Positions 18,766 through 40,439 are shown, counted from the stretch's first letter. The stretch: 64,000 nt of DNA from Micropepsaceae bacterium (GCA_047602465.1 JASGHF010000002.1:48559-112558); one strand, 5' to 3'. The notes: generated from the letters alone by a model not told the origin. Numbers and translations: made by a program.

Positions 18766-19917
18766 CTAAATCAGCAGGCCTGTCTGGCGCGGAATTTCCC
18801 GCTCCTTGTGGACATAAACGCTCATCAGGATGCCGAAACCCATCATCACGGTCAGCATCGCCGTACCGCCATACGAGACGAGCGGAAGTGGAATGCCAAC
18901 GACGGGAATCAGGCCCATCACCATCGCCATGTTGATCAGGATATAGGCCAGAACGTTCATGGTCAGACCGAGCGCTACGACCCGGGAGAAATGCGCTCTC
19001 GCCCCCAAACCGATCGAAAGCCCGATTCCCAGCACGATGACGTAGAGCCCCATCAGGAACAGGCAGCCGACCAGCCCGAACTCCTCCCCGAGCATGACGA
19101 AAATGAAGTCGGTATGCTTCTCCGGCAGAAAGTCGAGTTGGCTCTGGGTGCCGTTCATGAAGCCTTTGCCGAACAGCCCGCCTGAACCCATGGCGATATT
19201 CGCCTGGGTGATATTGTAGCCGGCGCCAAGCGGATCACGGCTCGGGTCTAGGAAGGTGTCGATGCGCTCCCGCTGGTAGGGGTGCAGCATCTCGTAGGCG
19301 ACCGGAATGGCGGCGCCCACGGCCGTAACGGCCACGATGATGATCCACCACCGCAGACCCGAGACGAACAACACGCACGCCCCGATGAAGCAGAGAATGG
19401 TCGCCGTTCCCAGATTGGGCTGCATCAGCACCAGCATCACCGGCACACCGATCAGCGCGAGCGGCACGATCAGACTGCGAAGCTTGATCGCCTCGTCATA
19501 AGTGCGTCCGTGGAAATAGCGCGCCAGAGCCAGCACAAGCGCCAGCTTCATGAGCTCGGACGGCTGGATCTGGATGATGCCAAGATTGATCCATCGCTCG
19601 GCGCCTTTGCCGACATGGCCCATGAACTGCACCAGCAGCAGCAGACCGATACACGCGACGTAGAACGGATAGGCAATCGACATCCATACGCGAATATCGA
19701 TCATTGCGAAGGCGACCAGGATCACCAGCCCCACCAGGAAACGGATGATCTGCTGCTTCGCCCAGGGGTCAAGCGACCCGCCCGCGACCGAATACAGCAT
19801 CAGGAAACCGATCGAGGCGATCGTCGTCACCGCCAGCAGAAGCGGCCAATGAAGATCGAGAATTTTACGGAGCCTGGAGGGCTGCGGCCGATCAAAGCCT
19901 AAAGTACGGGTCGCCAT
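18766..19917 (-). CDS. rodA: Rod shape-determining protein RodA (SEDS)
   Basis: GAERWI, IQPSELMK, QPNLGT, FLPEKHTDFIF, PLPLVSYGG. Confidence 0.96.
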   Translation of the reverse strand: MATRTLGFDRPQPSRLRKILDLHWPLLLAVTTIASIGFLMLYSVAGGSLDPWAKQQIIRFLVGLVILVAFAMIDIRVWMSIAYPFYVACIGLLLLVQFMGHVGKGAERWINLGIIQIQPSELMKLALVLALARYFHGRTYDEAIKLRSLIVPLALIGVPVMLVLMQPNLGTATILCFIGACVLFVSGLRWWIIIVAVTAVGAAIPVAYEMLHPYQRERIDTFLDPSRDPLGAGYNITQANIAMGSGGLFGKGFMNGTQSQLDFLPEKHTDFIFVMLGEEFGLVGCLFLMGLYVIVLGIGLSIGLGARAHFSRVVALGLTMNVLAYILINMAMVMGLIPVVGIPLPLVSYGGTAMLTVMMGFGILMSVYVHKEREIPRQTGLLI

Positions 19918-19918
19918 G

Positions 19919-21787
19919 TCAAGCAGGCACGACGCTTGCGACCGGCGCGCCGGCGGGGTCGTGATATTTTTCAAGCGTCCGCTGCATGATGTCCTTGGCG
20001 ATCGGCGCGGCCGCCTTGCTGCCGCCCTGCCCGTGCTCCACGACGACCGCCATCGCGAAACGCGGCGCTTCGACGGGCGCAAAGCAGATGAACAGCGCGT
20101 GGTTGCGGAGATGCCAGGGCACGGCGTTGCCTTTGAGCGTACCGCCGACGCTCTTCGCGCCTCGCACCTGCGCCGTTCCCGTCTTGCCTGCCATCTTGAA
20201 ATCCCCGGCCAGCCGCGACCGGCCGGCGGTGCCGCCTGCGGCGTTCACCACCGCGTCCATTCCGTGGTGTATCAGCGCCAGATGCTCCGGAGGTATGCCA
20301 AGGTCGGCCGCAATCGGCTGCGGCTCCGGCACGCCGCCCACCGCCCGGACGATCCGCGGCATGACAGCCTTTCCGCCATTCGCCACGCGCGCCGTCATGA
20401 CCGCGAGTTGCAACGGCGTAGCCGTGACATAGCCCTGCCCGATCGCCGCGTTCAGCGCATCGCCCGGCCGCACCTCCTCGCCAAACCGCTCCATCTTCCA
20501 GGCCGTCGACGGGATCGATCCGCGTCGCTCACCCGGGACCTGGAATCCGAACTTCTCGCCGAGGCCCAGCCGGTGCGCCATGCCCGCAATGGCATCCAGC
20601 CCAACGCGGCGTCCTACTTCGTAGAAGAAAACATTGCACGAGACCTTCAAGGCGTCCGAAACATTTACGGCGCCGTGGCCGCCGCCGCGATGGCAGTGGA
20701 ACGTATGGCTGCCGAGCCGCAGATAACCCGGACAACGGATACGCGTGCCGCCGTCGATCACCCCCGCGGCCATGCCCGCCAGGCCCGTGCAAACCTTGAA
20801 GGTCGATCCCGGCGCGTATTCACCGGCCAGCGCCTTGTTCAGCAGCGGCTTGTAGGGGTCTTCGTTCATCTCCTCCCAGCGCTTCTGACTGAAGCCGGTG
20901 ATGAACTCGTTAGGGTCGAATCCGGGGCTCGACACAAACGCGAGAATGTCGCCGGAGTGGACATCCAGCAGCACAGCGCTGGCGCTTTCGCCCAGCATAC
21001 GCTCCTGCGCGAACCGCTGAAGCTCCATATCGAGCGTCAGTTCGACATCCGAGCCCGGACGCCCCTCCTGCCGGTCCAGTTCGCGGATGACCCGGCCGTG
21101 GGCATTGACCTCCACCTGACGAACGCCGCCCGTGCCACGCAGGTCGCGGTCCACCGCACGCTCGACGCCATTCTTGCCGATTGGAAAGCCGGGCAGCCGC
21201 AACAACGGATCGCCGTCGTCGCGCGTCTTGAGATCGTTCTCTGACACAGCAGCAACATAGCCAAGCACGTGGCTCAGCTCGGTGCCGAAGGGATAGGTCC
21301 GCACCTGCCCGACATCGGCGACGATCCCCGGCAGTTCAGGCGCCGCGAGATTGATCCGCGAGAATGTCTCCCAGTCGAGACCGTCCGCCGCGGTGACTGC
21401 AGCAAGTCCGGCTTTGGTGCGGGATTCTCTCTTGATCTTCTCGCGTTGCTTTGGCGTGACGGTCACGAAGCGCTCAAGCAGATCGAGCGAGTTGTCGATC
21501 GAGGCCGTCTGATCGGGCACCAGAAGCGCGCGGTAGTTGGGCCGGTTGCCCGCCAACTCCACCATGTTCCGGTCCGTGATCCGCCCACGCGGAGGCGCCA
21601 GAAGCTGAAGATTGATGCGGTTGTCTTCCGCCAGCGTCCGGTACTTGTCGGATTCAAGTATCTGCAGCTGGTACATACGCGCCACGAGACCGCTCAGCAG
21701 CGCCGTAGCGCCCACACCCAGCAGCAGCGTGCGCCGCGTGAAGGATGCGGATCGCTCGTGCTCGTCGCGCTCGCTGTAGAGGCCCAT
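19919..21787 (-). CDS. mrdA: Penicillin-binding protein 2
   Basis: PPRGRITDR, PGSTFK (SxxK), SCN (SxN), KTGTAQ. Confidence 0.96.
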   Translation of the reverse strand: MGLYSERDEHERSASFTRRTLLLGVGATALLSGLVARMYQLQILESDKYRTLAEDNRINLQLLAPPRGRITDRNMVELAGNRPNYRALLVPDQTASIDNSLDLLERFVTVTPKQREKIKRESRTKAGLAAVTAADGLDWETFSRINLAAPELPGIVADVGQVRTYPFGTELSHVLGYVAAVSENDLKTRDDGDPLLRLPGFPIGKNGVERAVDRDLRGTGGVRQVEVNAHGRVIRELDRQEGRPGSDVELTLDMELQRFAQERMLGESASAVLLDVHSGDILAFVSSPGFDPNEFITGFSQKRWEEMNEDPYKPLLNKALAGEYAPGSTFKVCTGLAGMAAGVIDGGTRIRCPGYLRLGSHTFHCHRGGGHGAVNVSDALKVSCNVFFYEVGRRVGLDAIAGMAHRLGLGEKFGFQVPGERRGSIPSTAWKMERFGEEVRPGDALNAAIGQGYVTATPLQLAVMTARVANGGKAVMPRIVRAVGGVPEPQPIAADLGIPPEHLALIHHGMDAVVNAAGGTAGRSRLAGDFKMAGKTGTAQVRGAKSVGGTLKGNAVPWHLRNHALFICFAPVEAPRFAMAVVVEHGQGGSKAAAPIAKDIMQRTLEKYHDPAGAPVASVVPA

Positions 21788-21790
21788 CGA

Positions 21791-22315
21791 TCAGGCCCTC
21801 ATCGGCGCGATGACGCGCCGCTCGATGAAGGCGAAGGCGAAGCCGAAGAACGGGTAAAGGCCAATGGAAACCAGCCCCTGCACCACGAATTTCAGCGGCT
21901 CCTGCACCTCCCACGCATAAAGCGACCACAGCCCCCAGGCGAGGAAGCAGGCCGTCGCGCAGGTCAACGCGAACAACGCCCACGCCGTGTAGATCACACG
22001 CCCGAACGTGTCGCGCAGCACCAACGCCATGGCGTGACAGACGAGGAATGTCAGCGCCCACAGACCGAGCGGCGCGCCGCTCAGCAGGTCATAGGCGAGA
22101 CCCGTGAAGAAAATCGGGGCGGGGGTCATCAGATCACCCCGATGCGTGCCGAAGAAGAACACCACCATCAGCGGATAGAGCGGCGTCATCTCCAGATCGC
22201 CCGGCATTCTCAGCGGCAGGATGGCGATGATGACGGCCAGGATCGCCAGCAGGAACGGCATCCGCCGTCCGATCCATTTGATGAAGCGCGAGAAGATCGA
22301 AATGACCATCGTCAA
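21791..22315 (-). CDS. mreD: Rod shape-determining protein MreD
   Basis: Hydrophobic, GLAYDLLSGAPLG motif, located between mreC and mrdA. Confidence 0.9.
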   Translation of the reverse strand: MTMVISIFSRFIKWIGRRMPFLLAILAVIIAILPLRMPGDLEMTPLYPLMVVFFFGTHRGDLMTPAPIFFTGLAYDLLSGAPLGLWALTFLVCHAMALVLRDTFGRVIYTAWALFALTCATACFLAWGLWSLYAWEVQEPLKFVVQGLVSIGLYPFFGFAFAFIERRVIAPMRA

Positions 22316-23247
22316 CGCCCGCCCGGCTGCGGGTTGGCGGCGACCGTCTCATCGCGCGTTGTCGCCGGCGCCTCGGCCACCGGCGGCGGGACATCGACAT
22401 CGTTGACGACGTTGAACCTCTTGATCGCGACGACCTCGATACGCCCGGCGTCGGCATACAGCGTCGCGGCCGGCGGCTCTGCGCCCCGCAGATGCACCAC
22501 CCCCACCGGCAAGCCGGGAGGCAGGACGCCGCCATCGCCGGATGTGACGATCTGCTCCCCTTCGCGAAGTGTCACACCGGGCGGAATGAACCGGATTTCC
22601 GGCAAACCGTCGCTGTCGCCGGAAAGAATGGCCCGCACGCCGGCATCGCCGATCACCACGGGGATATGGCTGGTTGAATCCGTCAACAGCAGGATGCGGG
22701 CCGACCTGGCCCCAACCTTCACGACGCGCCCGACCAGACCAAACCTGTCGAGCGCCGCGTCGCCCTCGCGGACGTCCTTGTTGGCGCCAGCATTCACGAT
22801 CAGCGCGCGAGAAAAGGGACCGGCCGTATCTGCGATGACGCTTGCCGCCGTGACACCCTCGATGGGCGTGTAGAGAATCTCCATCACGCTCTCGAAGGCG
22901 GCGATCTGTCGCTCCTGTTCCAGCGCCTTCTCGCGCCAGGTCAGCAGTTCGGCGTTCTCACGGCGCAGCCGCTCGTTCTCGCCATGGAGGTCTGCGGCAT
23001 TCGAGACATAGTCGATCGCCCCGGACACCGCGTCGGTGACTGCTGCGCCGGCGCCCAGAACATCGCTCGCCAGGTCCGCGGCCGTCATCCGGACCTTGTC
23101 CATGAAAGGCAGTTCCGCCCGTCCCACCAGAAGCAGGGCGAGCGCCAACACGCCAAACGTTACAAGCCCGCCGCGATGAGCTCTCAGCTCGATCGGGGTC
23201 TTCCAGCCCTGGCGTTTGTAAGTTGCGTGCGGCATCCCGCGACGCAC
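22312..23247 (-). CDS. mreC: Rod shape-determining protein MreC
   Basis: TM plus coiled coil (LHGENERLRRENAEL), GLVGRV, TSGDGGVLPPGLPVG; the start may be ATG23235. Confidence 0.93.
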   Translation of the reverse strand: MRRGMPHATYKRQGWKTPIELRAHRGGLVTFGVLALALLLVGRAELPFMDKVRMTAADLASDVLGAGAAVTDAVSGAIDYVSNAADLHGENERLRRENAELLTWREKALEQERQIAAFESVMEILYTPIEGVTAASVIADTAGPFSRALIVNAGANKDVREGDAALDRFGLVGRVVKVGARSARILLLTDSTSHIPVVIGDAGVRAILSGDSDGLPEIRFIPPGVTLREGEQIVTSGDGGVLPPGLPVGVVHLRGAEPPAATLYADAGRIEVVAIKRFNVVNDVDVPPPVAEAPATTRDETVAANPQPGGR

Positions 23248-23254
23248 CTCCCAC

Positions 23255-24304
<1,050 letters not shown>

Positions 24305-26885: not shown

Positions 26886-27906
<1,021 letters not shown>

Positions 27907-31177: not shown

Positions 31178-31921
31178 ATGTCATTCCTGAAACGGCTCTT
31201 CGGCGGATCGGCACCAGCCCCTGAACCCGCACCGCGACCTGCAGAGGCCGACGCCATCGTGCAATGCCGGACGCACGTAGCCAGCTTCGACAGACGCCAT
31301 CAGCCCAGAGAATGGGCCGAGGCGATGCAGCTTCTCGGCCACAACCTGATGGCGACCGCGAGCTACGCCGAAGCGGATGAAACGCTCACCAAGGCGCTCG
31401 AGGCTGCCGGGCATGATGCCAATCCGCTCTTCCGCGCCTCCATGCTGAAAATTCTGGGAGAAACGCGCTACCGGCACGGAGAAACGCTCACAGGTGACGC
31501 GCGCGGTGTCATGCTCGCCGGCGCCGCCAACACGCTGGCCGATGCGCTTGCGCTCGTGCAGCCGCACGAAAACCGCACGCTCTGGATGGAGGCCGCGATT
31601 TTTCGCGGCGCCGCGTTGCACGAACTCGGGCGGCTTCGCTCCGGTCCGGAAGGTCTCGCCTGGATGGATGAGGCCGCCGCCTGTTTCGCCGATATAGCCG
31701 CACACGGCGCGGAAGGAGCGGTCCATCCCGTTGGCCTCTACAATCGCTACGCGGTCATGGAACAGCGCGGTCACCGCACGAGCGGCGCAGGCCGCGCGAT
31801 GTATTACAGAGAGGCGCGCGAAGCGCTCGCCGGAGCCATGGCGGCCGATACTTTCGCGAACCGCCCGGATCTCACCGTGAAGCTCGCTGAACTCGATGCC
31901 TTGATCGAGGCAGCAGACTGA
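31178..31921 (+). CDS. Hypothetical helical-repeat (TPR-like) protein
   Basis: 247-aa Ala-rich ORF with repeated WA.A...LG..L and LG..L..LG patterns; high-GC codon usage. Confidence 0.6.
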   Translation: MSFLKRLFGGSAPAPEPAPRPAEADAIVQCRTHVASFDRRHQPREWAEAMQLLGHNLMATASYAEADETLTKALEAAGHDANPLFRASMLKILGETRYRHGETLTGDARGVMLAGAANTLADALALVQPHENRTLWMEAAIFRGAALHELGRLRSGPEGLAWMDEAAACFADIAAHGAEGAVHPVGLYNRYAVMEQRGHRTSGAGRAMYYREAREALAGAMAADTFANRPDLTVKLAELDALIEAAD

Positions 31922-32873: not shown

Positions 32874-33758
32874 ATGAACTGGATCGCTGTCCTCGTCGGC
32901 GCACGCAGCACAGGCGGCCTCGACGCCGCCATAGTTTCGGACGCGCGCGCGGCCGTTGGCGGCGGAGAGCCTGTCTGGCTGGCCGATGGCCTTGCCGCAG
33001 AGTTCGCCCTGACCGCCCCCTCCTGGCGACCCGTTGACGCCCTCATCCGCCAGACCCTTGCCGGCCGCCCCATCGATATCGCCGTCCTGCCGGCCGAAGG
33101 CCGCCGCAAACGCCTGTTCGTCGCCGACATGGATTCCACCATTATCGGCTGTGAGTGCATCGACGAACTGGCCAATTTCGCCGGCGTGAAGGTTGAGGTT
33201 TCCGGCATCACGGAGCGCGCCATGAGAGGAGAGCTGGATTTCCCCTCCGCCCTGCGTCACCGCGTCGAGCTGCTGAAAGGCCTGCCGCTGCACGCCTTGC
33301 AGCAGGCCTATGACGAGCGCGTGCGTCTCAATCCCGGCGCCCGCACGCTCGTTCAGACGATGGCGGCCGCCTCCGCCGTCACCGCCCTCGTTTCCGGCGG
33401 GTTCACCTTTTTCACGGCCCGCGTCGCGGCCGCCGCAGGGTTTGCGTTCAATCGCGCCAACGTGCTGATCGACGACGGCGCAGCGTTGACCGGCGAGGTC
33501 GGCGAACCGATCCTCGGCCGCGAAGCGAAACTCGCCGCGCTGCTGGAGCTTGCCACCGCCAACAACCTGGAACCGTCCGATTGCATCGCCGTCGGCGACG
33601 GCGCGAACGATCTCGCCATGATCGAAGCCGCCGGCCTTGGCGTCGCCTATCGCGCAAAGCCTGTCGTAGCCGATGCGGCGCGCGCGCGTATCGACTACGC
33701 CGACCTGACCGCGCTTCTCTACTTCCAGGGCTATCGGGAGTCCGAGTTCGCCGCCTAG
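32874..33758 (+). CDS. serB: Phosphoserine phosphatase
   Basis: ADMDSTII, ERAMRGELDF, VSGGF, GDGANDL. Confidence 0.96.
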   Translation: MNWIAVLVGARSTGGLDAAIVSDARAAVGGGEPVWLADGLAAEFALTAPSWRPVDALIRQTLAGRPIDIAVLPAEGRRKRLFVADMDSTIIGCECIDELANFAGVKVEVSGITERAMRGELDFPSALRHRVELLKGLPLHALQQAYDERVRLNPGARTLVQTMAAASAVTALVSGGFTFFTARVAAAAGFAFNRANVLIDDGAALTGEVGEPILGREAKLAALLELATANNLEPSDCIAVGDGANDLAMIEAAGLGVAYRAKPVVADAARARIDYADLTALLYFQGYRESEFAA

Positions 33759-36613
33759 CGCGGCGGCTGGGCGATCACCAGGACCCAGTATTTGACGCCG
33801 CCGGCTTCCGCCATGCCGACGCCGATGGCGACGGCCGCCGGGTCCGTAAGCGCCGTCGCGGTGTCGCCGCGCCCGCTCCAGAACGCGACGGCTTCTCCGG
33901 CTGAATTCTGGCGGCGCGAGTGGAGCTGTGAAGCCGCAGCATTTCCATAACCCGACTGCCTCAACATCTGGAGCACGGCGCTGCCCGACGGCTGCTGGAT
34001 CTTTCCAAGCCGCGCGTTGTTCGCAGCCAGCACCTGCGCCACCTTGTCCAGCGCATCGCTCGCCGCCACATCGCGCACGCCGCTGCGCTGGCGGAAAGCG
34101 TTCACCGGCCCCAGCGCCTGCGCGCTGAAACTTCCGGAGGTGACGGGCGGCGGCTCGGCCGTCGGCGTTGGCGAAGGAGCGGGCGTCGGCGCGGCGGTGG
34201 GGGTCGGCGTCGGCTTGGGTGGCGCTTTGGACGGCCCGCCATACGCTTCCGGCGTAACATTGAACTCCGACAGCACGGCGCCGTCCGGACCGGCGCGGCC
34301 GATGAAACTGTCATCGAGGATCACGTCCAGCGCGCCGGCATCGGACGCCGACACCGACAGGTCACGGCGATCCGGCATATGATAGCTGTCGCCGCGTTTC
34401 AGATCGCGGTCGATCAGTTCGTCGCGTCCGCCACGCACCGTCAGCCTGACGCTGCGCCGCGCGACATAGACGATGCGTCCGCCTTCGCCCTGCGCGCCAT
34501 AGGCACGGCCTGTCTGGCCCTGCACTTTCGTACCACGGGGCGCCGCCTCGATTGCGCCCGTCGCACGTGGCGCCTCCGGGGTCGGAGGTGGTGTTGGTGT
34601 CGGCGACGCGGTCGGTTCGGGCGTCGCCTCGGGTGTGGGCGTGATGACCGGTGAGGGTGTCGGGGCGGTCGTAGGCGTAGGCGTCGGAACGACCGTTGGC
34701 GTAGCCGTCGGCGACGGCGCGCGAGGCGGCGGCGTTCCGGCAATTGTCGGCGTCGGTACGATCGTCGGCGCCGGCGTGACCTCCGCAACCGGCGGGCCGG
34801 ACACGGGCGGCGGCTCGTCACCCGGCAGAAGGAAGAAGACCGCCGCGGCGCCGACGACTGCCAGCGCCACGAACTGCCCCACGGCAATCAACGGCGAACG
34901 GCGCGGCGCTTCGTCCGGCCCTGCGTCGGCAGGCTCCATGTCCGGCGAAACCGGATCGCCGCTACCGCCATCTGTATCCGCCTCGAAAGCTTCATCGATG
35001 GCCGGCGTTTCCGGCGGCGCGATAGGTATGACGACTGACTTTTCGAAGACTTCCAGCGACGGCTCCGGCAGCTCCGCGTCCGGCGCTTCGACCGGCAGGG
35101 CGGCGGCCAGCGCTTCCATCTCCGGCGGCGCCTCGGGCATAGCGGCTTCGGCATCGCCCGGAACGGGCGCCGCGACCACAGGCGGCGCGTCCTCGCTCAT
35201 CGTTTCGAACAGCCGCGCGACCTCGTCCATGGTCTGCGGCCGGTCGGCAGGATCGGGCTGAAGCAGATGCGTCAGCACCCGGGCCAGCGGAAGCGGCAAC
35301 TCGTCGAGCGGCGGAACCGCCAGCCGCCTGGCCTTGGCGGCTTCGATATCGCGGCCCATGTTCAGCGGCTTGCCACGGCTGAACGCCGCCATCAGAAGCC
35401 CGAAGGCATAGATATCGATCGAGGGGCCGAGCTTTGCCCCATCGAAGGTGAACTGCTCCGGGGCGGCATAGCTGAACTTGCCGGCGAAAGCGCCGCCGAG
35501 CGAATCGACATCGCCCATGCGCGCGATACCGAAATCGATCAGCGTCGCTTCCGACAGATCGCCCTGCCAGATGATGACATTGTCCGGCGCGAGATCACGA
35601 TGGATGATACCCCGCCTGTGTGCGGCCGACAGGCCCTGCGCCAGGCGCACCGCGACGATCCGCACATCGTCCAGCGATGGCGTATTGGCCCGCCGCCAGT
35701 CGCGCAGCGTCGGCCCCGGCACGAATTCGGTGACGAGATAGAACTGGTCGGAATCCGCGATCCGGCCGAACACGCGATACTGCACCACAGCCGGATGCTT
35801 CAGCCGCAGCAGCGCGTTGGCTTCCAGCTTCAACAATTGCGCGAACCGCTCGCTCGCCGCCACGTCGGCCAGCAGCAGCTTCAGCGCGACGCGCTCGTCC
35901 TCGTTGTGGATGTTGGCGGCTTCATAGACTGCGCCGAACCCGCCGGCCCCGAGACGGCGGACGATGCGGTACTGACCGATTTCGTCCCCCGGATGCAGAT
36001 CGCCGGGGCCGCCGCCGCGCATACGCACCGACACCAGCTTTTCGCTGGTCGAAGGCGCGCCCGACGCGCCGCTCAGTCCTCCCGACAGGCCGACCGAAGG
36101 CTGTGTCGGCGCCGCGTGCGAGGCCTCGTCGGCCTGGCTCTTCATGATGATGGTGGAGCGCTCGAAATCCAGCTCCTCACCCTCGGATGGCTGTGAAGGC
36201 TCGACCGGCAGCGCTGCATCCGGCACCGCCGCGCCGACCCGCCCGCGTAGCTGCGCGATCACTTCATCCAGCCCTGCCGCGCCGGACACCCAGCCGCGCA
36301 GGTCGGCGCAGCGGAGCTGGCGGAAGCCCAGCGGCGGCTTCTCGACATCCTTCAGAACAGGCAGCAGAACCCCGCGCTCGAAGGCCTCCTGCGCGACGTC
36401 ACGGACCCAGTTGGAATTGCGCGAGGCATTCGACCAGACAGCGATGATCGCCTTGGCGACGGACAGTTCCTCGTCCACGTCGCGCTGGGTCGACTGCCCA
36501 AGCGCCGGGGCCAGATCCCACAGCACATCGAAGCCGGCATCGCTCAGCGCGCCGGCGAACACGCCGACCCAGGCCCTGTCTTCGGGCGCAAAGCTGATGA
36601 AGACGTCGGCCAC
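33755..36613 (-). CDS. TIR-domain / Ser-Thr protein kinase / TM / RodZ-C(DUF4115)-like / CAP-like multidomain protein
   Basis: TIR start ADVFISF..EDR; kinase GAGGFGAVY, VALK, HRDLAPDN, DFG, YAAPE; TM LIAVGQFVALAVVGAAAVFFLL; Pro/Thr linkers; RDLKRGDSY..SDAGALDVILD; VNAFRQRSG..WSG..IGVGMA..KYWVLV. Confidence 0.85.
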   Translation of the reverse strand: MADVFISFAPEDRAWVGVFAGALSDAGFDVLWDLAPALGQSTQRDVDEELSVAKAIIAVWSNASRNSNWVRDVAQEAFERGVLLPVLKDVEKPPLGFRQLRCADLRGWVSGAAGLDEVIAQLRGRVGAAVPDAALPVEPSQPSEGEELDFERSTIIMKSQADEASHAAPTQPSVGLSGGLSGASGAPSTSEKLVSVRMRGGGPGDLHPGDEIGQYRIVRRLGAGGFGAVYEAANIHNEDERVALKLLLADVAASERFAQLLKLEANALLRLKHPAVVQYRVFGRIADSDQFYLVTEFVPGPTLRDWRRANTPSLDDVRIVAVRLAQGLSAAHRRGIIHRDLAPDNVIIWQGDLSEATLIDFGIARMGDVDSLGGAFAGKFSYAAPEQFTFDGAKLGPSIDIYAFGLLMAAFSRGKPLNMGRDIEAAKARRLAVPPLDELPLPLARVLTHLLQPDPADRPQTMDEVARLFETMSEDAPPVVAAPVPGDAEAAMPEAPPEMEALAAALPVEAPDAELPEPSLEVFEKSVVIPIAPPETPAIDEAFEADTDGGSGDPVSPDMEPADAGPDEAPRRSPLIAVGQFVALAVVGAAAVFFLLPGDEPPPVSGPPVAEVTPAPTIVPTPTIAGTPPPRAPSPTATPTVVPTPTPTTAPTPSPVITPTPEATPEPTASPTPTPPPTPEAPRATGAIEAAPRGTKVQGQTGRAYGAQGEGGRIVYVARRSVRLTVRGGRDELIDRDLKRGDSYHMPDRRDLSVSASDAGALDVILDDSFIGRAGPDGAVLSEFNVTPEAYGGPSKAPPKPTPTPTAAPTPAPSPTPTAEPPPVTSGSFSAQALGPVNAFRQRSGVRDVAASDALDKVAQVLAANNARLGKIQQPSGSAVLQMLRQSGYGNAAASQLHSRRQNSAGEAVAFWSGRGDTATALTDPAAVAIGVGMAEAGGVKYWVLVIAQPPR

Positions 36614-36683
36614 GAAAACGACGCTCTGTTGAAACCCTGCCGAAAACTAGCAGGGTCCGCCCTAAGCGCCAGCCATCAAAAGG

Positions 36684-38183
36684 TTATTCGCCCAGGCGAA
36701 TTGCCGCAAAACTGAGATCGCCGCCCCGGTTCAGCAGGAACAGCACCACCCGGTTGTTGGCGTTGACCGCTTCGCCGACACGGTCGGACACCGCCTGAGG
36801 CGTCGTGACCTCCTGCTGCGCCACCTCGACAATGACATCCCCGACCCTCAACCGGCCCTCTCCGGCGGCCTGGCCGGCCGGCGAATCGGGGGTGATCTCG
36901 GTGATGACCACACCTTGTATTTCGGCCGCGATGCCAAAACGCTCGCGGAGCGCATCGTTGAGTTCGGCGACCGTCATGCCGAGCGCGTCGATACGGACCG
37001 CGCCCTCGGCGACCTCGGGGGTCGGCGTCGGTTCGGGCGTCGGGGTTGCGGCGCCTTCCGCCGAACGCTTCTCGAAATCCTCCAGCCGCTCCAGCGTCAC
37101 CGATACCGAGACCGGCTGCCCGTCGCGCCAGAGGGCCACGGTGGCGGTCTTGCCGATCTCGCCGTCGGCGATGGTGCGCGGCAGCGCGCGGCTGTCGCGG
37201 ATGTCCTTGCCGTCAAAGGACAGGATGATGTCCTGCGCCTTGATGCCGGCCTTTTCGGCCGGGCCGCCGGGCGTCACTTCGGCCACGAGCGCGCCCCGCG
37301 CTTTGTCGAGGCCAAGGCTCTCGGCAAGCTCCGGCGTGACGGCCTGGATACGCACGCCGATCCACCCGCGCCGCGTCTCGCCGAACTGGATCAGCTGGTC
37401 GACCGTGTGCTTCACGATCGAGGCCGGAATGGCGAAGCCGATGCCGATCGACCCGCCGGAGGGCGAAATGATCGCCGAGTTCACGCCGATCACGTTGCCG
37501 TCCATGTCGAACAGCGGGCCGCCCGAATTGCCGCGATTGATGGCGGCGTCGGTCTGGATGAAGTCGTCATAGGGGCCGGAAGCGATGTCGCGGTTGCGGG
37601 CCGACACGATGCCGGCCGTCACCGTACCGCCGAGGCCGAACGGATTGCCGATCGCCATCACCCAGTCGCCGACCAGCAGCGCATCGCTGTTGCCGAACGA
37701 GACCGACGGCAGCGGCCCCTTGTGCTTCACGCGCAGCACGGCGAGGTCGGTCTTCTCGTCCTTGCCCACCAGTTCGGCGACGAGGCTGAGGCCGTCAGGG
37801 AAGTTGACCGTGATCTCGTCGGCGCCCTCGATCACGTGGTTGTTGGTGACGATGAGGCCCGACGGGTCGATGACGAAACCTGAACCCAGCGAGGTGACCG
37901 CGCTGTCCCGCTGCTGGTCGTAATAGTCCTTGAACATCTCCTCATAGGGCGATCCCGGAGGAAACTGCGGCATCTCGTTGAGATCCTGCCGCTCGATCTT
38001 CTGGCTGGTCGAGATGTTCACGACGGCGGGCGACAGGCGCGTGGCGAGGCCCGAGAAGCTGTCGGGCGCGGGGCGGGCCGCTGCGGGAGCCGCCGCAAGC
38101 ACCAGCGCCAGGCCGAAGCCGCGCAGAAGAGCGAAGGGGTTCAAGGGGCTAGCTCCTCCAGAGGGCCGCGCGGCGCGCCGCAT
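36684..38183 (-). CDS. degP: DegP/DegQ (Do family) serine protease
   Basis: SLGSGFVID, TNNHVI, QTDAAINRGNSGGPL, two PDZ domains; start uncertain. Confidence 0.93.
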   Translation of the reverse strand: MRRAARPSGGASPLNPFALLRGFGLALVLAAAPAAARPAPDSFSGLATRLSPAVVNISTSQKIERQDLNEMPQFPPGSPYEEMFKDYYDQQRDSAVTSLGSGFVIDPSGLIVTNNHVIEGADEITVNFPDGLSLVAELVGKDEKTDLAVLRVKHKGPLPSVSFGNSDALLVGDWVMAIGNPFGLGGTVTAGIVSARNRDIASGPYDDFIQTDAAINRGNSGGPLFDMDGNVIGVNSAIISPSGGSIGIGFAIPASIVKHTVDQLIQFGETRRGWIGVRIQAVTPELAESLGLDKARGALVAEVTPGGPAEKAGIKAQDIILSFDGKDIRDSRALPRTIADGEIGKTATVALWRDGQPVSVSVTLERLEDFEKRSAEGAATPTPEPTPTPEVAEGAVRIDALGMTVAELNDALRERFGIAAEIQGVVITEITPDSPAGQAAGEGRLRVGDVIVEVAQQEVTTPQAVSDRVGEAVNANNRVVLFLLNRGGDLSFAAIRLGE

Positions 38184-38268
38184 GCCGCCATATTGCCCAA
38201 TCGACCGGATGATCTTGATAACATTGCGGCGACCGGCGGGCGTTTCAGCGCCCGCCGTACCGTAAGCC

Positions 38269-39171
38269 TCAGGGCGTTGCCGGGGCCGGCTGGGCGGGCG
38301 GGCCGCCCTTGCCTGCGCCATCCTTGAAGTAGCGGAAGAACGGCGAGTCCGGCGACAGCACCATCGTCGTGTCGTTTCCCTTCATGGACTGCGCGTAGGC
38401 CTGCATCGAGCGATAGAACTCGAAGAAGCCCGGGTCTCTGGAGAAGGCGTCGGCGTAGATCTTGTTCCGCTCCGCGTCGCCCTTGCCGCGCATGATGGCG
38501 GCGTCGCGCTCGGCATTGGCGACGATGATCGTTGCGTCCTTGTCGGCCTTGGCCCGGATCTCCAGCGCCGCCTTTTCGCCCTTCGCGCGGATTTCGGCGG
38601 CTTCCTTTTCACGCGCCGTCTTCATCCGGTTGAAGATCGCCTCGCTGTTCGCCTGGGGCAGATCGGCCCGGCGGATGCGGACATCCACCACCTCGATGCC
38701 CCATTTCTGGGCGTCGACATTGGTGCGCTCGCGGATCGTCTCCATCATCGTGGCGCGGCCCGCCGACAGGAGAACCTGGAACTTGTTCGCAGCGACGGTC
38801 GCCTTGATGTTCGAGGTCAGCTGCTGGCTGAGGCGCTGTTCCGCGACAGAGCGGTTGTTGACCGCCTGATAGAAGAGCAGCGGGTTCACGATGCGGTAGC
38901 GCGCGAAGGCCGAAACCACCACGCGCTTCTCGTCGCTGGACAGCGATTCTGCCTGCGGCGTGTCGATCTCCAGGATGCGATCATCGAAATAGACGACGTT
39001 CTGGATGAACGGGACCATCATATAGAGGCCCGGCTCCGTCACGGTCGACTGCGGATTGCCGAGCTGGACGACGATCGCCTGCTCGCGCTCTTCCACCACG
39101 AAGAAGACGAAGTTCCACAGGAAGAACAGAACGCCGAAAATGACGCCGAAGATGATGAGGGTCGTACGCAT
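38269..39171 (-). CDS. hflC: FtsH protease modulator HflC
   Basis: SPFH domain, GIEVVDVRIRRADLP, FFEFYRSMQAY. Confidence 0.95.
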   Translation of the reverse strand: MRTTLIIFGVIFGVLFFLWNFVFFVVEEREQAIVVQLGNPQSTVTEPGLYMMVPFIQNVVYFDDRILEIDTPQAESLSSDEKRVVVSAFARYRIVNPLLFYQAVNNRSVAEQRLSQQLTSNIKATVAANKFQVLLSAGRATMMETIRERTNVDAQKWGIEVVDVRIRRADLPQANSEAIFNRMKTAREKEAAEIRAKGEKAALEIRAKADKDATIIVANAERDAAIMRGKGDAERNKIYADAFSRDPGFFEFYRSMQAYAQSMKGNDTTMVLSPDSPFFRYFKDGAGKGGPPAQPAPATP

Positions 39172-40307
39172 CAGCGGCCTCCCCCCGTCGCGGGCGCTTC
39201 GGGCGCATTGGGTCTCAGCCGGTCGAGCGGCAGATACGGGACGACGCCGTTGGCGCCCGCCCCGTCGACGATGATCTTGTTCGTGCCGCTGAACACCTGC
39301 TCCATCGTCTCCAGGAAGATGCGCTCGCGCGTCACGTCCGGCGCCAGCCGGTACTGTTCGTAGATCGCCAGGAAGCGCTGGGCTTCACCGGTGGCCTCGG
39401 CGACCGTCTGCGAGGCATAGGCTTCGGCCTGCTGCGAGATGCGGGCGGCCTGGCCTTCCGCGCCCGGCACGGTCTGGTTGCGGTAGGTGTCGGCCTGGTT
39501 CCGCATCTTCTCGGCGTCGGCGACGGCGGCCTGCACGTCGCGGAACGAGGCGATGACCTCTTGAGGCGGCTCCACGCGCTGAAGCTGGACTTCGTTGATG
39601 GTGACGCCGGCGCCATAGCTGTCCAGCGTCTTCTGCATCAGCTCCTGCACTTCGTTCTGGATCTGCTCGCGCTCTTCGGTGAGGACGCGCTGCTGGTTCT
39701 TGCGCGCCACGACGTCGCGCATCGAGGATTCGGCGACCGCCTTGATGGTGTCTTCGACGTTCTCGACGTTGAACAGATATTTCTGGGCGTCGGCGATGAT
39801 CCAGATCACCGTGAAATCGACGTCGATGATGTTCTCATCGCCGGTCAGCATCAGGCTCTCGTCCGTACCGCTGCTGCGGGCGCCGTCGGCGCGCACGCCG
39901 ACGCTGACCGAGTTCTGGCGCGTCACCTGAGGCTTTTCGACCGTCTCGATCGGCCAGGGCAGCGCATAGTTGAAGCCCGGGCCGGTCTGGCGGCTGAACT
40001 TGCCGAACGTCTTCACGATGCCCTGCTCGTCCGGCTGGACCGTGTAGAAGCCGGTCGCCAGCCAGGCGCCGATCGCGACCAGGGCGATCAGCAGGATGCC
40101 GCGCGTGCTCATCGGCCCGCCCGGCATCACCTGCTTCATGCGTTCCTGCCCGCGGCGGATGAGGTCTTCCAGATTGGGGGGCTGATTTCCGCCGCCGCCA
40201 CCGCCGCCCTTGTTGCCGCCGCCGCCACCCTGGCCCCAGGGACCACGGCCGCCATCCTTGCCGCCTCCCCCGCCCCAGGGGCCTCCGGAATTATTCTGCC
40301 ACGGCAT
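39171..40307 (-). CDS. hflK: FtsH protease modulator HflK
   Basis: MPW..GGPWG..PPNLEDLIRR, MLTGDENIIDV, PPQEVIASFRDV, APDVTRERIFLETME. Confidence 0.95.
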   Translation of the reverse strand: MPWQNNSGGPWGGGGGKDGGRGPWGQGGGGGNKGGGGGGGNQPPNLEDLIRRGQERMKQVMPGGPMSTRGILLIALVAIGAWLATGFYTVQPDEQGIVKTFGKFSRQTGPGFNYALPWPIETVEKPQVTRQNSVSVGVRADGARSSGTDESLMLTGDENIIDVDFTVIWIIADAQKYLFNVENVEDTIKAVAESSMRDVVARKNQQRVLTEEREQIQNEVQELMQKTLDSYGAGVTINEVQLQRVEPPQEVIASFRDVQAAVADAEKMRNQADTYRNQTVPGAEGQAARISQQAEAYASQTVAEATGEAQRFLAIYEQYRLAPDVTRERIFLETMEQVFSGTNKIIVDGAGANGVVPYLPLDRLRPNAPEAPATGGGR

Positions 40308-40439
40308 AAGGGCCGGTCCTCCCAAGTGCGACGCGGACATGCGTCAGGATGGCGCAGAGCGCGCCCTGGTTCTCATATCCGACGCGGGGGGCATGAAATC
40401 AAGGTGCGCGAGCCGCAGCCGTGCTATCCAGAGGGTGTC

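Follow-up and report, generated by a model that had tools for sequence, protein, structure and literature searches.

The window analyzed here is a 64,000-nucleotide stretch of DNA from a Micropepsaceae bacterium (GCA_047602465.1, JASGHF010000002.1:48559-112558), and the subject of this study is a gene on its minus strand (33755..36613; GTG start codon 36611-36613, stop codon 33755-33757) which encodes a protein of 952 residues in a single open reading frame (ORF). Public data contain 20 full-length orthologues (54-85% identity), the set to which all orthologue counts below refer, and in all eight orthologous loci that were translated the GTG start recurred together with an 'ADVF' N-terminus (AQVF in locus L003). 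These results indicate that the ORF is a real gene. From the N- to the C-terminus, the product is composed of a TIR domain, a Hanks-type Ser/Thr kinase domain, a transmembrane (TM) helix, a RodZ_C-like domain and a CAP-like domain. Pfam matched TIR_2 (PF13676) at residues 4-110 (E 2.9e-18; 66.9 bits, gathering cut-off 28), Pkinase at residues 215-462 (E 5.5e-33; 114.9 bits, cut-off 31.7) and CAP (PF00188) at residues 836-945 (E 1.7e-7; 32.5 bits, gathering cut-off 21.1), and each of the three was found in every orthologue. The five-part architecture proposed in an initial annotation of this DNA is therefore upheld by Pfam, hydropathy and AlphaFold2/Foldseek analyses.

The TM helix (residues 578-596, 34826..34882) was the sole segment above threshold in the Kyte-Doolittle profile (2.39) and is preceded by Arg571-Arg572. 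Since the protein lacks an N-terminal signal sequence and this Arg pair obeys the positive-inside rule, the N-terminus is predicted to lie inside and the C-terminus outside, which would place the TIR and kinase domains in the cytoplasm and the residues past 597 in the periplasm. We regard it as almost certain that the protein has the architecture and topology of a bitopic receptor Ser/Thr kinase, with a cytoplasmic TIR and kinase and two periplasmic modules. It had been called a one-component kinase, which is loose wording for a bitopic receptor kinase.

The TIR domain (residues 1-128, 36230..36613), predicted to be cytoplasmic, was modelled by AlphaFold2 with a confident beta-alpha-beta-alpha-beta pattern (predicted local distance difference test, pLDDT, about 90). 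In a sequence search of the PDB its closest solved relatives were PdTIR (3h16), BtpA/TcpB and AbTir (7uxr). When the TIR-kinase model was submitted to Foldseek the matches were swamped by kinases, and the TIR drew no structural match of its own. The TIR signature is retained at F5-I-S7 and E11-D12-R13 (box 1, 'FISxxxxDR') and at W69. Characterised TIR domains that cleave NAD+ (NADases) in general carry a catalytic Glu in helix alpha-C, within a WxxxE motif. In the window protein this helix reads S67-N-W69-V-R-D72-V73-A-Q-E76-A77 (36383..36415), with Val73 (codon 36395-36397) in place of the Glu at W69+4.

Three lines of evidence bear on this substitution. In the phmmer alignment with PdTIR 3h16, which reads 'WPQKE' here, V73 fell opposite the Glu and W69 opposite the Trp. 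Position 73 was Val in 18 orthologues and Ile in the other two, within a helix where S67, N68, V70, D72, A74, E76 and A77 were invariant. Paralogous TIR-kinases (P0023-P0029), on the other hand, read 'SHWVRAEAGDALERG' in the same helix (WVRAE), and in an orthologue-paralogue alignment without gaps over its first 112 columns, column 73 was Glu in all four paralogues aligned and Val in the orthologues. Together these results indicate that the catalytic Glu, whose absence the initial annotation had pointed out, was lost through a substitution fixed in this lineage, and that the loss does not stem from the alignment. Glu76 had been named as a residue that might act as the catalyst instead. The W+7 position that it occupies was Asp or Glu also in paralogues with the canonical Glu, which indicates that E76 is ancestral and not a relocated catalytic residue. 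It is likely, judging from these alignments, that the TIR is dead as an NADase.

The TIR does not appear to be decaying. Mean pairwise identity among the orthologues was 76% for the TIR and 84% for the kinase, compared with 60% for the RodZ_C-like domain, 51% for the CAP domain and 29-50% for the linkers. The ratio of nonsynonymous to synonymous substitution rates (dN/dS; Nei-Gojobori, eight loci), approximate because dS was near saturation, was 0.12-0.27 for the TIR, 0.11-0.21 for the kinase and 0.23-0.78 for the linker. The high identity and low dN/dS suggest that the TIR is maintained by purifying selection about as strong as that acting on the kinase.

Such conservation is also what would be expected if the TIR were still an enzyme, with Asp72 (or Glu76) replacing the Glu and with sensing and phosphorylation coupled to NAD+ cleavage or to a signal derived from ADP-ribose. 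In line with this alternative, the remainder of the TIR signature is intact, and Asp72 (W+3) is invariant in the orthologues and specific to this family, being Ala in the paralogues. However, the position of the catalytic Glu is hydrophobic in 20 of 20 orthologues, residue i-1 of a helix points about 100 degrees away from residue i, and E76 is not compensating, given the acidic residue found there in paralogues that have the canonical Glu. We consider an enzymatic TIR unlikely.

The kinase domain (residues 209-470, 35204..35989) has the full complement of Hanks motifs, and all were invariant in the orthologues (G222-G227, K245, E264, H338-R-D340...N345, D360-F-G and A384-P-E), in agreement with its earlier description as an intact kinase. 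Its top Foldseek matches were Mycobacterium tuberculosis PknI, PknB and PknA, with template modelling scores (TM-scores) of 0.8-0.86. The activation segment, DFGIAR(M/L)-(G/A)(D/E)xD(S/A/T)LGGAFAGKFSYAAPE (residues 360-386, 35456-35536, minus strand), is without Thr; position 371 was Ala in 11 of the 20 sequences, and invariant Lys379 occupies what we take to be the Thr position of the P+1-loop 'GT' of PknB. An acidic pair, (D/E)368 and D370, is conserved in the segment and may mimic phosphorylation. From the lack of Thr and the conserved acidic pair we infer that activation of this kinase would be independent of loop phosphorylation.

In an AlphaFold2 model of residues 1-480 the TIR (1-128) and the kinase (about 205-470) were confidently predicted, with a disordered linker between them (129-203, pLDDT about 30). 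Within this otherwise variable region (residues 129-208) a motif, D149-F-E-R-S-T-I-I-M-K158 (36140..36169), stands out, D149 and E151-I155 being invariant. Throughout the 'NIHNEDERVALK' kinase subfamily (close relatives P0001-P0035) a related motif, (D/E)(D/E)R(S)T-x-hydrophobic, is found ahead of the kinase domain and is sometimes duplicated; its distance from the G-loop is about 70 residues in the window protein and exactly 26 in the paralogues. The ERSTII motif may accept phosphate or serve for docking. Between the kinase and the membrane lies a variable cytoplasmic tail, acidic and rich in Pro and Ala (residues 471-572, 34898..35203), which ranges from 78 to 306 residues in the orthologues.

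On the periplasmic side, two stalks rich in Pro and Thr (about 77-78% P/T plus A and S or E) were found. The first (about residues 597-683, 34565..34825) has some 85 residues (83-183 in the orthologues) and the second (residues 796-825, 34139..34228) some 30 (25-41 in the family). They flank the RodZ_C-like beta domain (residues 684-795, strands about 714-785; 34229..34564), and the second leads to the CAP/SCP/PR-1-fold domain (residues 826-952, 33758..34138). AlphaFold2, run on residues 684-952 with a 17-sequence alignment, gave a model of mean pLDDT 84, in which an all-beta domain (about residues 714-785, pLDDT 84-89) is followed by an alpha/beta domain (about residues 825-950, pLDDT 90-95).

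The segment resembling the periplasmic domain of RodZ that the initial annotation had noticed is recognisable in the family rather than in the window copy by itself. Pfam RodZ_C (PF13464) matched the window protein at residues 723-778 with E 0.086 and 13.2 bits, below the cut-off of 23.9, but it matched 9 of the 20 orthologues at E<=0.01 (best 4.1e-8). The assignment therefore holds for the family. The resemblance found no counterpart when the RodZ_C-like profile was aligned by hhalign with the beta domain of Escherichia coli RodZ, and neither Foldseek nor a profile search gave a PDB partner for the beta domain; its RodZ_C-like identity appears to come solely from the Pfam model. A sequence search of the PDB with the whole periplasmic half likewise yielded no significant match. 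Weak matches of the profile to cupin beta-strand motifs, none of them significant, hint at a possible distant cupin-like kinship; the E-values were 0.02 for 11S globulin, 0.044 for prunin and 1.3 for HppE.

The CAP domain matched GAPR-1 (E 3e-5), Borrelia BB0689 (TM-score 0.74), plant PR-1, Staphylococcus aureus SAV1118 and a Bacillus anthracis SCP protein when Foldseek was run against the PDB. A metal-binding tetrad of His and Glu residues is typical of the CAP superfamily, though not universal. In a weak profile alignment the tetrad of GAPR-1, H54/E65/E86/H103, corresponded to Q/Q/variable/D in the window protein, whose CAP domain contains no Cys and a single, non-conserved His, as expected from the earlier remark that catalytic His residues were lacking.

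Among curated NCBIfam families, the only envelope-specific one matched by the C-terminal domain, and weakly, was DalA. DalA (RSP_1200) is a divisome-associated CAP-type lipoprotein of Rhodobacterales that binds peptidoglycan non-covalently (PMC10470522). Both proteins are alphaproteobacterial and have a periplasmic CAP-like domain; DalA, however, is a free outer-membrane lipoprotein, whereas the CAP domain of the window protein forms the C-terminus of a predicted inner-membrane kinase. Membership of the DalA family (NF052539) was rejected, the score of 21.7 bits being a tenth of the cut-off of 200.

The RodZ likeness raises the alternative that the protein is an elongasome-associated regulator, its RodZ_C-like domain docking MreC, MreD or PBP2 as RodZ does and its kinase tuning lateral wall synthesis. 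The family match to RodZ_C agrees with such a role, and so does the layout, since in RodZ (E. coli b2516 and homologues) a TM helix is likewise followed by a Pro/Thr-rich periplasmic region and then by the RodZ_C beta domain (PMC13584716). In addition, an mreBCD-pbp2-rodA cluster lies 9.5 kb away, and a paralogue adjoins the gene for a class A penicillin-binding protein (PBP). The initial annotation had taken the periplasmic domain of RodZ to contact the elongasome, a premise that is not exact. The part of E. coli RodZ that contacts MreC has been mapped to membrane-proximal residues 138-155, outside the C-terminal RodZ_C beta domain (PMC13584716), and no similarity to this MreC-binding segment was detectable in the window protein. 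Moreover, RodZ constructs lacking most of the periplasmic domain were largely functional in E. coli, according to truncation studies as cited in PMC13584716. Two orthologues are without the RodZ_C-like domain, and unrelated biosynthetic genes separate the mre cluster from the kinase gene. The N-terminal cytoplasmic helix-turn-helix (HTH)/MreB-binding domain of RodZ is also missing here, the N-terminus consisting of the TIR and the kinase with no Pfam HTH match, and orthology with RodZ was rejected for lack of the HTH domain. A link with the elongasome is possible but unsupported, and a regulator of this kind seems improbable.

Upstream of the kinase gene and on the same strand are its syntenic partners hflK (39171-40340), hflC (38269-39171) and, directly adjacent, degP/htrA (36684-38321). 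Downstream it is met by the convergent serB (32874..33758, plus strand), which overlaps its stop-codon region by 4 bp. Synteny was sampled in nine loci (L001-L009) from eight other genomes, L001 and L009 both being from the isolate SO-S41. The order thyA-GNAT-folA...mrp / hflK-hflC-degP-kinase><serB-miaA...ilvIH was complete in SO-S41, L002 and L003, and the immediate degP and serB flanks were kept, within the reach of their contigs, in the five further genomes (L004-L008). Compared with SO-S41, the window showed 83% identity for the kinase domain and 75% for the TIR, against 78% for degP, 71% for hflK, 69% for serB, 66% for miaA and 88% for ilvI. That the gene sits among core genes had been argued previously from the window; the argument now has broader support, in the flanks present wherever a contig reaches them and in an evolution resembling that of housekeeping genes. 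The comparisons indicate that this is a core gene, vertically inherited and not mobile, and we consider it very likely that its role is physiological and not in defence.

Most bacterial TIR proteins described in the literature work in defence, and the kinase domain was matched by the PADLOC models for PD-T4-6 and mad6 (E 1e-49) and by NCBIfam MAD6 (143 bits). These results could suggest an anti-phage or abortive-infection kinase, akin to the PD-T4-6, Mad6 and PglW types or to TIR defence systems, that lies among core genes by chance. However, the matches involve the generic kinase domain only and fall well short of the family thresholds (Mad6, 143 against a cut-off of 460; PglW, 49 against 990); the synteny is fixed, with single-copy vertical descent and housekeeping-like conservation; no defence genes lie nearby, the neighbours being hflKC, degP, serB and miaA; and the catalytic Glu has been lost. 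In the sole search of a mobile-element collection, a patchy homologue search limited by its word index, the sources listed were all metagenome or genome assemblies. Membership of the catalogued defence kinases (PD-T4-6, MADS Mad6 and BREX PglW) was rejected on the sub-cut-off scores and the core context, and a defence function is very unlikely. Least likely of all is that the protein is just a generic Ser/Thr kinase, to which the other domains are evolutionary baggage that neither senses nor scaffolds anything specific: the ectodomains are indeed the least conserved globular parts, but all 20 orthologues keep the TIR and CAP domains and 18 keep the RodZ_C-like domain, many residues of each being invariant, and the dN/dS of the TIR is close to that of the kinase.

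The gene is confined to a single small lineage of alphaproteobacteria from soil and wastewater. In a scan of 185,579 genomes, one per GTDB species, orthologues were found in only six, comprising alphaproteobacterial metagenome-assembled genomes (MAGs), one of them represented by a mis-binned contig, and SO-S41; three of the six also carried paralogues. The isolate SO-S41, obtained from forest soil, grows slowly and is sensitive to H2O2; it may represent a new order (PMC8297455). The contig of L005 (CAZBPO010000076.1), on which degP and serB flank an orthologue of 67% identity, was found in a MAG labelled 'uncultured Flavobacteriaceae'; since its gene order is alphaproteobacterial, the label is almost certainly a binning error. 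The CAP profile, searched against 1.84 billion representative proteins, recovered just four kinase-fused clusters, the next matches being secreted tandem-CAP proteins. A word-indexed homologue search with the CAP profile yielded a single protein, and one with the TIR alone yielded nothing but short fragments.

The paralogous TIR-kinases (P0023-P0029) share with the window protein the TIR, the (D/E)ERT motif, the 'NIHNEDERVALK' kinase subfamily, the single TM helix and a core, syntenic position, but they retain the canonical Glu and their C-terminal regions lack RodZ_C and CAP. A MORN repeat was matched in P0025 (25.5 bits, Pfam cut-off 22.5) and, below threshold, in P0028 (21.2 bits). In the three paralogue loci (L010, 6001-9573; L011, 6001-8502; L012, 6001-9498) the gene for a class A PBP (transglycosylase and transpeptidase) lies divergently upstream of the Glu-containing paralogue. 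In L010 and L011 the paralogue is followed by gyrB and recF is also found; L012 ends sooner, so that the check for recF covered the other two loci. The Glu-containing paralogue is thus also core and syntenic, and the same genomes present a contrast between a Glu-less TIR-kinase next to an envelope quality-control operon (hflK-hflC-degP) and a sister TIR-kinase with the catalytic Glu beside a peptidoglycan synthase.

Taking the evidence together, the reading that we favour, at slightly better than even confidence, is that of a vertically inherited bitopic receptor kinase for a periplasmic or cell-wall cue, in which the TIR serves as a non-enzymatic assembly or docking module. By analogy with the peptidoglycan-binding DalA and with the logic of the PASTA kinases of Gram-positive bacteria, the ectodomain would bind a periplasmic or cell-wall ligand, either material derived from peptidoglycan or an envelope protein, the stalks letting the two globular modules reach into the periplasm. 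Clustering dependent on this ligand would then unite the cytoplasmic halves, and the Glu-less TIR would provide self-association or docking of a partner instead of NAD+ cleavage. In the kinase, with its Thr-less activation segment and acidic pair, proximity would take the place of loop phosphorylation as the switch, and the enzyme would phosphorylate substrates, possibly including the invariant ERSTII motif of its own linker, to tune envelope homeostasis. An envelope ligand is suggested by the weak DalA match, the RodZ-like order of TM helix, Pro/Thr-rich region and RodZ_C domain, and the hflKC-degP and PBP neighbours; sensing of the envelope or of peptidoglycan by the ectodomain is nevertheless a tentative assignment, to which we give somewhat less than even weight. 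Much the same applies to the TIR as a scaffold, a plausible role that we would not yet back at even odds.

Several observations weigh against this receptor-kinase interpretation. The AlphaFold2 model predicted zero contact among the TIR, the linker motif and the kinase, and Asp72, beside position 73, could in principle rescue some catalysis. The RodZ_C match is below threshold in the window protein itself, the hhalign comparison with E. coli RodZ was negative, and the orthologues P0020 and P0021 are those that lack the domain altogether. The DalA similarity likewise lies far under its family cut-off. Adjacency to degP/hflKC or to a PBP gene may, moreover, merely mark sites that tolerate insertion.

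Among known systems, the PASTA kinases (M. tuberculosis PknB, Bacillus subtilis PrkC and Streptococcus pneumoniae StkP) are similarly bitopic, with a cytoplasmic Hanks kinase, one TM helix and extracellular sensors, and cell-wall sensing is proposed for both. The window protein differs from them in having a RodZ_C-like and CAP ectodomain without PASTA repeats (no Pfam match), an N-terminal TIR, a Thr-less activation segment and a Gram-negative alphaproteobacterial host. Membership of the PASTA-kinase family (PknB_PASTA_kin, NF033483) was rejected, the score being 130 bits against a cut-off of 450 and covering the kinase part only. With the NADase TIRs (AbTir, PdTIR, BtpA/TcpB and Thoeris ThsB) the window TIR shares Pfam TIR_2, the 'FISxxxxDR' box 1 and the alpha-C Trp, but it has Val or Ile for Glu, is fused to a receptor kinase and is encoded by a core syntenic gene outside a defence or effector setting.

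In animals, Toll/IL-1R - MyD88 - IRAK/Pelle signalling uses TIR domains of the scaffold type. If the scaffold role proposed here is accepted, the two arrangements would have in common a non-catalytic TIR coupled to a Ser/Thr kinase, a single-pass receptor ectodomain and assembly driven by proximity. The window protein is, however, a single polypeptide, with the TIR at its N-terminus, the ectodomain at its C-terminus and no death domain, and the likeness would imply no common descent of the arrangement. Bacterial TIRs have been studied almost solely as NAD+-cleaving immune or effector enzymes. It is a speculative and, at present, rather doubtful proposition that this bacterial TIR dispenses with NAD+ chemistry and acts as a proximity or assembly module built into a receptor Ser/Thr kinase for housekeeping envelope surveillance, a prokaryotic counterpart of Toll/IL-1R-IRAK logic. 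If true, it would be direct evidence for scaffold-type or ligand-binding TIR signalling in bacterial physiology, and Gram-negative bacteria would have, in this receptor Ser/Thr kinase and its new RodZ_C-like and CAP sensor module, a functional parallel to the PASTA kinases known from Gram-positive bacteria. Given the narrow clade, the impact would be conceptual and not broad. SO-S41, a cultured though slow-growing isolate, holds both a Glu-less orthologue and a Glu-containing paralogue (P0028), and the small size of the domains suits them to biochemistry. The architecture had been put forward as undescribed, and a limited literature search, from which absence is not proven, brought up surveys of Hanks kinases and of TIR architectures without any account of a bacterial TIR-kinase-RodZ_C-CAP protein.

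The spacer between degP and the kinase gene measures 70 bp (36614..36683), compared with 67-73 bp in L001-L003, the three loci with gene calls. A promoter and terminator scan of this spacer revealed no convincing terminator, only a weak, poorly conserved hairpin without a T-run. A search for public sequencing runs that contain the region found none. The hairpin, ACCCTGC-N9-GCAGGGT (36631-36653, minus strand), was recognisable in the closest loci (L006 and L007) and lost in more distant ones, and GAGCGTCGTTTCGTG upstream of the start codon was kept in most of the nine loci and degenerate in L001-L003. The longest ORF for degP (545 residues) exceeds its orthologues (487-492 residues) by about 55 residues and runs into the end of hflC. 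Translation probably begins at an internal Met instead, which would leave an hflC-degP spacer like that of L001-L003 (92-153 bp).

Elsewhere in the window, a one-base insertion divides ilvC, the gene for ketol-acid reductoisomerase (26886-27906, minus strand), into two overlapping ORFs. The break lies near 27539-27540, where the window reads 'GATTCTCGAC' and the intact L002 orthologue 'GATCTGGAC'. Either the insertion is an error of sequencing or assembly, or ilvC, an essential biosynthetic gene, is a genuine pseudogene here. The elongasome cluster is complete (18766-24301, minus strand) and comprises mreB (23255-24301), which follows ilvC as in L002, mreC (22312-23247), a probable mreD (21791-22315, no Pfam match), pbp2 (19919-21787) and rodA (18766-20082). 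A conserved hypothetical protein of 247 residues, with no Pfam match, is encoded at 31178-31921 (plus strand), and L001-L003 have a gene of similar size (263-278 residues), also with no Pfam match, at the same position beside miaA.

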